Shown: positions 18,701-21,700 of the stretch, piece after piece
How positions within the stretch are numbered: the stretch's first letter is position 1
Layout of the letters: each line of letters begins with the position of its first letter
Origin: Paraspadella gotoi
Lineage: Eukaryota; Animalia; Chaetognatha
Direction: 5' to 3'
DNA length: 64,000 nt
Assembly: GCA_051294375.1 (NCBI GenBank)
Contig: CM119265.1
Coordinates: 18,648,631-18,712,630, forward strand
Translations under genes and position numbers: made by a program
Notes under the pieces: generated by a model
The model's input: only the letters and a program-made list of their open reading frames with translations
What the model was told of the DNA's origin: nothing
Databases searched by the model: none

Positions 18701-21700
18701 AATCGAAGAAAAAGGAGGAAGAGGGACGATTGCTTATCTCAATGCAATATAGTCAACTTCAACAGTCAGGGACAAGATAGCTTATTTTAATTTTTTTAAT
18801 ACTCGCTTTCTTTTTCCGCCAGAATCCGCTCCAACCTTCGTGGAACCGCTCCATCTGCTTGGCGACGACACCCCGCCCACCGAAGGCGACACCATCCTGC
18901 TGGGGGCGCGCCTCGACAAGCCCGTCGAAAACGGCGACGTCGTCTGGACGAAGGACGGCGAGGAGATGAAGTCCGGACCCAGAGTTTCGTTGCAGACGAC
19001 GGGTGAGTCGAGAAGATGAAACCGTGTAGAGTTCTAAAAAGTCTCGTTTTATTGGCTAAATTAGGGGCTCCTGATCATTTTTTTTATATTAGCTAAAAAT
19101 CTCTTAAAATCGTCATCCTTTTTATCTCCGATTTATCTTGGCTGCTTTTTCCCGTACTTATATGACTTATATTAATTTTAAGGTTACCTTTTTAGCACAC
19201 GCTTTTTTTCCTTAACGTTAATTCTTTGACCATTTACGAAAATTTTTTTTTTTTTAAATTCCTTTTTTTTACTTTGACCTAATTTGTTCTCTGACCCCCT
19301 AATTCAGCGACTGGAAGCGTCAACCTTCAGCTCCGCGACGTCGAGTCTGCCGACGCCGCAGTCTACGTCGTCCGTGTCGGCACCGCAGAATCGACCTTTC
19401 AACTCATCGTTAAAGGTAAGTTAGGCAGTAAGGCGTAGTAAAATTTCTAAATTTAACTTTANNNNNNNNNNNNNNNNNNNNNNAAAAAAAAAAAAAAATT
19501 TAAATCAAAATATACGAAACATTGTCAAAATAACTTGAATTATGAAAAATAATTTATTAAAATCAATAAAATCACTAAATTACATGAATCATTAGGTTCC
19601 ATAAACTGATACCTATTTTTTAATATACAATACAACGCTTTCTTTCTTTCTTTCTTTCTTTCTTCACACCATCGCTTCACCGAGTTCCGCACGAGCTCAC
19701 ACTAATAACCTTCAACCGATTGGGGCGAGGCATAAAGATGACATTCATCAACCGTTTTCTGTCACCCTTTATGCTGGTGTAAGGCGCGTTCGGAGGAAAC
19801 CCCGTGGCGAACCGAGTTAGAATTTCCCTCTCGTGGTCACCCTCGTAGATGTAAGGTCCGCTCCCCGCAGAGTTGTCCAACTCCAGCGCCGACGCCATCT
19901 GGGAAACGTTGGTCTCCTTTTCGGCCTCCGTCAGGTTCTCCGCTTGATTGTAGACGAACACGAAGTTTTCCGGTTGCTCGGAGTAGTTGAGCCAGTCGAG
20001 ATACTTCTTGATGGCTTTGGCTTGCTCCGACTCGATCCTCTTGCAACAAATGACGACGACGACGTCGAGTTGGACGAAATTGATGCTGACTTTGCCTTTG
20101 ACGACGTCGTAAACCTGCGAGACGCTCAAGACGGAATCGCAGAGTCCCATCGTGTCGACGGCGATGACGTCGATCCCTTCGCCCCTTGAATTTTCCATCT
20201 TTCCCGCGATCAAGTTGACCTGCCGGGTCACGGAGAGCGCGGAGGCGGAAGTTTCGCAGACTTCCTGGTTGAAGAGGAGGTTGATGACGTGGGATTTGCC
20301 GCATCCGGTCGGACCCAGGAACAAAACGTTGAAGCTACTTTCAGCTCCACCTTCGGAGTTCACGGAATAGAGGGTTTTGACGTAGTGGATGTAACGTTGG
20401 CATTCGGGATAGAGAAGCGATTCGGACACCGTCCCACATTTCCTCAAAGGCTCCGGCACGACGTTGTGGACGTCGCGGAAATTTCTGACGTCGAAATTTG
20501 TGAAGTAGTTTTGAATGACGCCGCCGGGGGAAGACTGAAAGGATAGCCAGACGCCATTGTGAATGTAGCGCGCCAGGTGTTCCGAATTTCGGAGGCAGAG
20601 GGAGAAATTGTAGGCTCCGCAGACTTCAACGAGTCTGGCCTTCACTTCGTTCGTGAGCCTGTGATAAAAAAAAAATAGTGAATGTATTTATTTCTTTATC
20701 TCTTCATAAAGAAGAAAATTGTCAAATTTTGAAATCTTGAAAAAATAAAAATATGTGTTATAGATTGCTCACATGATGAATTGTTTCTGCCGCAGTTTAC
20801 CTAAAATTATGGTGAACAACGTAGTCTTTCGCCGTCCCACCGTCTGCCTTGACTAACGCCTCCAAGTTGCGATGAACGTTGAGGTGTTCTTGGTGTTGCA
20901 ACCCGCGACCAAAATCGATGAACAGGCGGTCGTCAGTGACGAACCAATAGTCGTAGTAAAACAAGTTGTGGAAGCGTTGCTGCACCGAGCAGAGTTTCAA
21001 CTCGGTCCCGAGGTTTTCCAATTCGCTGATCTGTCGGTCGCGCAGTCGCTGGTCGGGAAAGTTCAGCTCGTGCGGAGATTCCCACGTCGAAGCCTCCGCC
21101 ACGGCCGATGGGGCAGCTCCCATGTTTTCTAAATTCTAAATTCGGTAAAAAANNNNNNNNNNTTAATGCTTTCGAAGATGATTCAAACTTAATTTGTTTA
21201 ACACAAACACTTGGAATTTCATACAATTAGTACAATGAACAGTATTATGATTATCCAAATTGCGACGTAAGATTGTCCGTAAGCCAACTCACTGTCTCTC
21301 TTTCCTATTCGTCGGATCATTCTTCTCTTCCCTCTCCTATCTTTTCTTCCTTCTCTCATCCTCTTCTTCACATTATCACTCGTTTCTCGACGATTGCTCG
21401 ATCGTGCAAGGTCGATCGAAATGTTCGCGTTGAACTTTAAAGATAGTCATTTATCTAAAGTAAAAATCAATGCCTTTTATCTTATCTTTTTACTTTATTT
21501 TTATGACAGAGAGAACCCGTCGTGTTAGATTACTTTGAAAAAACGGCAGATTGACAGGGTTTTTTCTATATCTCTTTTCTAAAATATAAGACAACAATTT
21601 AATAAATTTGGGAGAATGAAAAAGGATTCTAACGAGCAGGACAAGTCAAGAAGAAGAAAGTATTTATTAGTTTATTTTTTGAAATTATAAAGAACCCCCT

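Follow-up and report, generated by a model that had tools for sequence, protein, structure and literature searches.

In this study, we describe a minus-strand gene located at positions 19677 to 21123 of a 64,000-nucleotide (nt) stretch of the Paraspadella gotoi genome (contig CM119265.1 of assembly GCA_051294375.1), which is referred to below as the window. The gene encodes a protein of 434 amino acids (aa) in which an LRAT-like domain is fused to an AIG1/GIMAP-like GTPase, an architecture that we regard as very nearly certain. The model that we prefer, and that as a whole we hold about equally likely to be right or wrong, is that the protein belongs to a conserved fusion family and that this copy is likely a myristoyl-anchored, GTP-switched membrane scaffold, whose lipase domain is predicted to be dead and would bind lipid or partners. 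Literature is cited by PMC number or preprint identifier.

That the gene is real, spliced and expressed is practically beyond doubt. Contigs from four public runs, X9 and three DNA runs, were aligned to positions 18700-21900 of the window. Although no run is annotated as RNA, X9 was treated as such because it skips three GT-AG introns, one of the surrounding host gene (19002/19308) and two of the gene described here (142 and 157 nt), none of which is skipped in the three DNA runs. A single 1502-nt contig of X9 lacks exactly the 142-nt intron, the joint being present in 0 of the 3 DNA runs, and the same contig joins a 5′ exon at 21293-21436 to position 21135, thereby spanning the N-gap on the right of the gene. 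The preliminary description, made from the letters of the window, had proposed a two-exon open reading frame (ORF) of 434 aa, and all the motifs it quoted were found again, at aa 1 (MGAAPS), 57 (YDYWFV), 68 (FIDF), 132 (NSEHL), 223 (GPTGCGKS), 250 (SVT), 276 (DTMG) and 429 (SSCGTR). Both of its coding exons stand, while its count of two exons does not, given the additional 5′ non-coding exon in the X9 RNA. This exon has a GTGAGT donor, and an in-frame stop lies 5′ of the main ATG. The leader also contains one start-stop ATG and two out-of-frame ATGs, whose frames of 89 and 76 codons overlap the main start; translational damping or chance are possible explanations for them. Between samples, seven of the nine coding differences were synonymous against an expected 22% (binomial P 6.5e-4, in a model free of transition bias), and the two remaining ones, V293I and L236F, were conservative, which indicates that the GTPase-bearing protein is under purifying selection in the window copy.

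Homologues of the protein were abundant. A search with exon 3 returned 18 homologues at E ≤ 0.001 (best 5e-76, identity 30-45%), and 484 clusters were found at E ≤ 0.001 among 1.84 billion representatives. A profile search gave 134 matches at E ≤ 1e-25, from the best 120 of which names were taken, and a profile of a distant sub-group gave 51 matches at E ≤ 1e-20. The named members include dinoflagellates (Alexandrium, Pyrodinium, Symbiodinium, Cladocopium, Fugacium and, as a cluster member, Prorocentrum), the calanoid copepods Neocalanus and Calanus (four further entries being assigned to Neocalanus through their common GFUD prefix), the rotifer Adineta ricciae, the nematode Acrobeloides nanus, the springtail Folsomia candida and the fungus gnat Bradysia odoriphaga. 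In addition, an entry of the tardigrade Paramacrobiotus, 279 aa long, comprises the GTPase only. The preliminary description did not recognize the architecture from characterized animal proteins; we likewise found no published account of it, and yet it is no one-off, being conserved across dinoflagellates and several animal phyla.

For motif counts, 355 proteins were fetched, 207 of which spanned both domains within 560 aa, and 149 remained after removal of duplicates at ≥90% identity; the counts given below and in Table 1 refer to these 149. At the columns of the catalytic triad, 137 have His, 127 Glu and 98 Cys, with Ser in 47 at the Cys column; the combination His-Glu-Cys occurs in 92 and His-Glu-Ser in 31, while the Tyr-Asp-Ser of the window copy occurs in none. 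An MG start and a CxxL/M end are found together in 73 homologues, and 126 have Cys at position −4. In the GTPase, DxxG is present in all 149 and the conserved-box arginine, R315 of the window protein, in 144. In a set of 74 homologues, 62 columns are conserved at ≥75%; the window protein has the consensus residue at 56 of these and another one at six. By these comparisons, the main differences between the window copy and the family lie in the triad, the G4 motif and the last residue. The typical member is predicted to be a doubly lipid-anchored, GTP-gated lipase or acyltransferase. It follows that a dead domain coupled to a GTPase, as proposed previously, describes the window copy well and the fusion as such poorly, as 92 of 149 homologues keep His-Glu-Cys.

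Some members deserve separate mention. The 31 His-Glu-Ser proteins may be dead like FAM84 or may have switched to a serine nucleophile, and the proteins with Ser are spread over several distinct branches. A Lipase_3 domain (E 2.5e-14) lies N-terminal to the family match in P0178, P0081 contains a cofilin domain and P0066 a zinc finger of the FPG/IleRS type, and P0077 (1109 aa) matches the window query twice; all of these are single sequences and may be chimaeras of gene model or assembly. Pattern scans confirmed 23 of 84 candidates in metagenomes, mostly on short transcript-sized contigs that revealed little of the gene context, and one of 20 in prokaryotes, a stand-alone LRAT protein of 166 aa and no fusion. 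In viruses, one was confirmed among the 601 matches listed, and it was judged to be due to chance, as it lies inside a P-loop-helicase-like ORF.

The homology of the N-terminal domain to LRAT/PLAAT, in the permuted order H-box then NC-box, is well supported by sequence comparison, as had been claimed, although the support comes through the homologues. Pfam LRAT did not match either window exon alone; the window protein can be aligned to the family over its whole length. Weak LRAT matches were obtained for 7 of 8 N-terminal fragments of homologues and for at least 12 of 18 proteins, all below cut-off, and two of five proteins scanned (P0087 and P0216) exceed both the LRAT and the AIG1 cut-offs. 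The family profile matched a bacterial Pfam-LRAT protein (own LRAT match E 1.1e-12) with probability 97.9 and E 4.4e-13 over 91 columns, in which His, Glu and NCEH coincide; it must be noted that this protein was chosen by its NCEH pattern, so that the independent agreement concerns only the H-box and the Glu. An AlphaFold2 (AF2) two-domain model of the full-length homologue P0043 (pLDDT 93.3, pTM 0.91) matched the folds of a parechovirus polyprotein (E 6.7e-4, root-mean-square deviation [rmsd] 2.9, 98 columns) and a viral LRAT (E 1.6e-3), both reported without aligned ranges. No LRAT-fold chain was present among its top 50 PDB matches, lists that were filled by the GTPase and thus give no evidence against the fold. 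LRAT/NC clusters at 0.83-0.86 in the ESM Atlas were taken as a lead only. The bacterial LRAT protein (L002:2695-3195, plus strand, 166 aa), from a metagenome-assembled genome titled Archangium, has a family-like RNCEHVARY...W.S.Q tail and is a possible relative of the N-terminal domain.

The lipase domain of the window copy is very probably catalytically dead, to judge from its residues. The preliminary description had reported the loss of the catalytic residues, and the alignment agrees, with Tyr59, Asp70 and Ser133 in place of the family His-Glu-Cys; the Tyr59 column is in register with the H-box His of the Pfam-LRAT protein. It had read FIDF as a lost His: the position is indeed changed, but the family residue is the Glu of the triad and the change is thus from Glu to Asp. 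Asp70 is still a polar residue, but there is no longer a His that it could orient. As Tyr replaces His and Ser replaces Cys, the domain would be unable to use the known mechanism. RARRES3/PLAAT4 requires Cys113, and its C113S form is inactive against Toxoplasma (PMC8789288). The closest relatives, P0003 and P0041, both read NCEH and keep the CaaL end, which argues that the dead state is derived in the window copy.

The assignment of the C-terminal half to an AIG1/GIMAP-like GTPase is borne out by the Pfam AIG1 match (34 bits against a cut-off of 27, E 2.4e-8), by a PDB profile search whose top matches were GIMAP4 (E 2.1e-14), GIMAP7 and GIMAP5, and by the AF2 model of exon 3 (pLDDT 91.6, pTM 0.91), for which Foldseek gave GIMAP7 as best match (E 4.6e-9). 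Over the models of exon 3 and of P0043, the best PDB folds were GIMAP7, Toc34 and GIMAP2. The predicted fold is thus of the GIMAP/Toc34 type. Motifs G1 to G3 are intact (GPTGCGKS, T252, DTMG), and R315, between G3 and G4, is in register with the arginine of the GRYTEEE box of GIMAP4 and GIMAP7. In GIMAPs, the conserved-box arginine acts as an arginine finger. We consider it probable that the GTPase works.

Both ends of the protein may bear on membrane attachment. The N-terminal MGAAPS had been described as a myristoylation-type start, and it conforms to the N-myristoylation consensus MGxxxS and shares the MG start common to 93 of the 149 homologues. A CaaL end is a geranylgeranylation signal. 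The C-terminal SSCGTR was correctly read as sequence, and is now interpreted as a degenerate CaaL box; by alignment, the window copy has lost the CaaL end kept by most homologues. The coordinates of all features are provided in Table 1.

Table 1. Features of the fusion gene and of the adjoining host exons in the window (counts refer to 149 homologues).
Feature	Position	Strand	Basis or remarks
Host Ig-domain exon, left of the nested gene	19308..19415	+	joined in X9 to the exon that ends at 19002
Next host Ig-domain exon, right of the nested gene	23843..24011	+	reading frame and Ig domain continue, by computation
5′ non-coding exon (start tentative)	21293..21436	-	RNA contig 27 of run X9, joint 21135/21293
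Intron 1, 157 nt, GT..AG; contains the 10-N gap 21153-21162	21136..21292	-	X9 RNA contig
Exon 2: 12-nt leader, ATG at 21123, aa 1-107; MGAAPS start and H-box strands of LRAT-like domain	20801..21135	-	
Intron 2, 142 nt, GT..AG	20659..20800	-	spliced out in run X9, 0/3 DNA runs
Exon 3: aa 108-434 and stop; NC-box helix, linker, GTPase, C-terminal tail	19677..20658	-	
Coding exons	21123-20801 + 20658-19677	-	1305 nt = 434 aa + stop
MGAAPS, predicted N-myristoylation site	21106..21123	-	MG start in 93/149
Tyr59 at catalytic His column	20947..20949	-	His 137/149, Tyr 1/149
Asp70 at third-triad Glu column	20914..20916	-	Glu 127/149, Asp 3/149
Ser133 (NSEHL) at nucleophile Cys column	20583..20585	-	Cys 98/149, Ser 47/149
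AIG1/GIMAP-like GTPase, about aa 218-420: G1 223-230, T252, DxxG 276-279, R315, G4 NQAE 345-348	19722..20330	-	
CGTR, degenerate CaaX box	19680..19691	-	CxxL/M 115/149, terminal Arg 2/149

The gene likely lies antisense within an intron of a plus-strand host gene, a nesting that rests on the RNA-bridged right gap and on the continuity of the host frame. It is flanked by N-gaps at 19462-19483 (left) and 21153-21162 (right), and its nested position had been said to hinge on scaffolding. This no longer applies to the right gap, which is crossed by the RNA contig: the first exon of the RNA sits in the right-hand contig, which is N-free from 21163 to 46728, through host immunoglobulin (Ig) exons, so that the gene is anchored there and not only on its 1.7-kb island. 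A DNA contig across this gap was not counted, as it had 29 letters on one side, below the threshold of 31. The warning holds for the left gap, which adjoins a high-copy short repeat and has no bridging contig. The repeat, present in very high copy number, lies at 19425-19461 on the minus strand, with a second copy near 43446 on the same strand; the continuation of the latter plus poly-A would fit the 22-base gap. The antisense orientation previously claimed is supported, the host exons lying on the plus strand. Computed from the sequence, the exons at 19308-19415 and 23843-24011 are frame-compatible, the first ending one Ig domain and the second beginning the next.

We infer the host to be an obscurin/UNC-89-like gene of the giant muscle type, because of a weak PH match at the window start (E 0.002) together with many Ig exons (Ig matches in five of the seven candidate host exons scanned). 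[WF]xK[DN]G motifs number 22 on the plus strand of the window versus one on the minus strand. The G+C content at third codon positions (GC3) is 0.71 in the nested gene, 0.70 and 0.83 in two host Ig exons, and 0.49-0.65 in the four long host exons. The host Ig array is broken by three long low-complexity plus-strand exons (16194-18653, 50363-51841 and 58637-60055) of 470-820 codons, without Pfam match. No second copy of the nested gene was found by tblastn in the 64-kb window. A second antisense gene lies in the same host at 44880-45736 (minus strand); its ORF at 45236-45736 has a signal-peptide-like stretch and matches Pfam TNF above cut-off (E 3.2e-6), and the ORF at 44883-45203 (minus strand) resembles the C-terminal half of TNF by eye, with no Pfam match at E ≤ 0.0005. 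With a TNF-like gene also antisense within the same host gene, the nesting itself is ordinary.

Regarding the evolution of the family, the window protein grouped with P0003 and P0041 in three trees (support 99, 99 and 94/98). The main tree was unrooted and built under LG+G4 from 23 rows (21 named or sister, one unnamed, and the window protein); P0057, an MMETSP row labelled dinoflagellate without species and shown in an earlier tree, was excluded. A 100/100 branch separates the rotifer, nematode, tardigrade, springtail and gnat from the dinoflagellates, the copepods and the window protein. It must be considered that the soil group was recovered with a profile built from its own branch and that the copepod entries are transcriptomes. 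A single arthropod clade was rejected (approximately unbiased test, p-AU 1.3e-50), as was a grouping of the window protein with the rotifer (p-AU 1e-41). Its grouping with dinoflagellates (p-AU 0.42) or copepods (p-AU 0.38) was not rejected, and neither was found in the tree; a recent transfer from either is thus unsupported. The gene tree splits by habitat, marine plankton versus soil fauna, and not by species, which makes it a candidate case of eukaryote-to-eukaryote gene transfer, although two ancient paralogues with differential loss explain the split as well.

According to the mechanism that we propose for the family, an N-myristoyl and a C-terminal geranylgeranyl anchor would hold the protein on a membrane, and GTP would dimerise the G domains via the conserved-box arginine, as in GIMAPs. 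Dimerisation would lead to clustering or activation of the His-Glu-Cys domain, and this domain would then hydrolyse or trans-acylate phospholipids of the target membrane, most likely that of a microbe-containing vacuole or a damaged organelle. The window copy, without His, Cys and prenyl signal, would function as a partner without catalysis, be it as regulator in a heterodimer, as adaptor or as decoy, in a relation comparable to that of FAM84/LRATD to the PLAATs, or of GIMAP6 or GIMAP2 to GIMAP7. In this regard, GIMAPs form both homo- and heterodimers with GTP, GIMAP7 being inhibited by GIMAP6 (PMC9111091).

Several observations weigh against this model. PDB profile matches to PLAATs were weak (E 0.8-2.8, HRASLS2 at E 0.8), below otoferlin at E 0.048. 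In VIA-align, the homologue model scored best with Toc33 (Z 17.2, rmsd 3.4, 202 aligned) and EngB (15.4), with GIMAP7 third (14.6, rmsd 3.2, 186 aligned); as Toc33 ranked above GIMAP7, the fold does not show an immune type, and we write GIMAP-like rather than a GIMAP. The window G4 reads NQAE and not NKxD (Q in 9/149, E in 26/149), which may change nucleotide affinity; the family mostly has NKxD or TKxD, and GIMAP7 reads TRKE in the alignment. The branch of the window protein is long, 0.85-1.08 versus 0.37-0.61 for its sisters. Finally, the many copies in free-living dinoflagellates fit a housekeeping role equally well.

A defence-related role, argued by analogy, has a little less than an even prospect of being right. 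It is plausible because the Toxoplasma vacuole is a site of action of both PLAAT4 and the GIMAPs of mammals and because both modules are paired in duck hepatitis A virus (DHAV): RARRES3/PLAAT4 is recruited to that vacuole (bioRxiv 10.64898/2026.09.12.751112), and GIMAPs restrict Toxoplasma there, promoting the fusion of lysosomes with the vacuole (PMC13141973). More boldly, the family could be a cell-autonomous defence effector in which a PLAAT4-type lipase and a GIMAP GTPase, separate proteins in mammals, form one GTP-gated, doubly anchored enzyme that attacks vacuoles, has moved between organisms sharing a habitat (marine plankton, that is dinoflagellates, copepods and P. gotoi, versus soil and freshwater, that is rotifer, nematode, tardigrade, springtail and gnat) and has repeatedly given rise to dead regulator copies; we consider this a rather unlikely reading, which, if true, would imply that mammalian GIMAPs and PLAATs cooperate on the same membranes. 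Unlikely too, in our estimation, is that the same biochemistry serves housekeeping, remodelling endogenous membranes (those of lipid droplets, of digestive vacuoles or of organelles in turnover), as might be expected from the location of GIMAPs on lipid droplets and lysosomes (PMC9111091), the degradation of lens organelles by a PLAAT (PMC10318531) and the several paralogues in free-living dinoflagellates and copepods; conflict genes would however be the better fit to the patchy distribution of the family, to its lineage-specific paralogues and to the nucleophile having been lost repeatedly (Ser 47/149), and there is no common model organism among the named members, most matches being unnamed. 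It is improbable that active members edit lipidated proteins under GTP control, as lipid amidases or fatty-acyl transferases of the YiiX/BcPPNE type, with the window copy reading lipid marks. His-Glu-Cys is indeed the YiiX/BcPPNE triad (His49, Glu64, Cys154; PMC3142127), and PLAATs use His-His-Cys instead (PMC7140883), but sequence matches go to Pfam LRAT (7/8 rows) with no C92/YiiX model in those scans, and the bacterial LRAT protein likewise has Glu at the third-triad column.

Two further explanations concern the window copy itself. The three triad changes, the lost CaaL, the changed G4, the long branch and the two out-of-frame upstream ATGs of the leader could mark it as a functionless paralogue that is degenerating into a pseudogene; the intact 434-codon frame, the spliced RNA, the seven of nine synonymous variants with two conservative ones and the 56 of 62 conserved columns kept make this very improbable. 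It is most improbable of all that the 1.7-kb contig is of foreign origin, from prey or a symbiont, or was misplaced by scaffolding. N-gaps lie on both sides of it, the left one unbridged, the host splice across the gene lacks an RNA joint, and the close homologues include many sequences from dinoflagellates or from unnamed marine sources. However, the first exon of the transcript lies in the right-hand contig that continues N-free through the host Ig exons, the GC3 resembles that of two host Ig exons, and the gene groups with neither the named dinoflagellates nor the copepods. In addition, the stretch is present in nine runs from seven samples and three studies of one organism, although two rows may be its source and two studies are left without its own study.

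The fusion family is apparently undescribed, its architecture being visible in databases and its parts known. No published description of an LRAT + AIG1/GIMAP fusion was found in the literature covered, which excluded most subscription papers and bioRxiv supplements. A dinoflagellate GIMAP survey (PMC8857920) has neither 'LRAT' nor 'NlpC' in its main text or in one supplement, the same two terms are absent from PMC3417536, and the main text of PMC12460157 contains no GIMAP, AIG1 or LRAT. The public entry P0087 (Adineta) already carries both Pfam labels. The conservation of the fusion across protists and several animal phyla is a hint, of the Rosetta-stone kind, at joint action of GIMAP GTPases and PLAAT lipases, which bears on the molecular functions of GIMAPs, which are largely unknown (PMC9111091). 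Moreover, the family provides single-chain, confidently modelled proteins in which the regulation of a lipid enzyme by GTP can be studied, including natural variants that have Cys, have Ser or are fully dead.

Among known systems, the PLAAT/HRASLS proteins (PLAAT3, PLAAT4/RARRES3) and LRAT (PF04970) resemble the fusion family in the order H-box then NCEH, and most homologues keep a triad. The family differs from them in having Glu and not His as the third residue, in the fused GTPase and in the anchors predicted at both ends, and the window copy also in the absence of His and Cys. FAM84A/B (LRATD1/2) are not known to carry a GTPase domain. Like the window copy, they have an LRAT domain without the catalytic Cys (PMC7140883); FAM84 is N-myristoylated (PMC8689648), whereas the window copy is only predicted to be so from MGAAPS, and FAM84B keeps both His (PMC7140883), where the window copy reads Tyr and Asp. 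Since the sisters P0003 and P0041 keep the Cys, its loss in FAM84 and in the window copy was most likely independent. With the GIMAP/IAN proteins (AIG1; human GIMAP4/5/7), the window GTPase shares the AIG1 profile, the GIMAP7 fold match and the conserved-box arginine. However, identity is about 14-18% in structural alignments, Toc33/34 folds score as well or better, the N-terminal enzyme domain and CaaL tail of the family are not GIMAP features, and the G4 of the window copy reads NQAE. The viral 2A region of avihepatoviruses and aaliviruses lies in a polyprotein and is without terminal lipid-anchor signals of the kind found in the fusion family, yet it sets both modules side by side, an AIG1-like 2A2 followed by an H-NC 2A3, in reversed order with respect to the family. 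DHAV carries these AIG1-like and H-NC modules in tandem, and they have been interpreted by some authors as a single protein that begins with an AIG1 domain (PMC5519566); among the viral fold matches, the DHAV-1 AIG1 protein ranked 8 and the parechovirus polyprotein 34.

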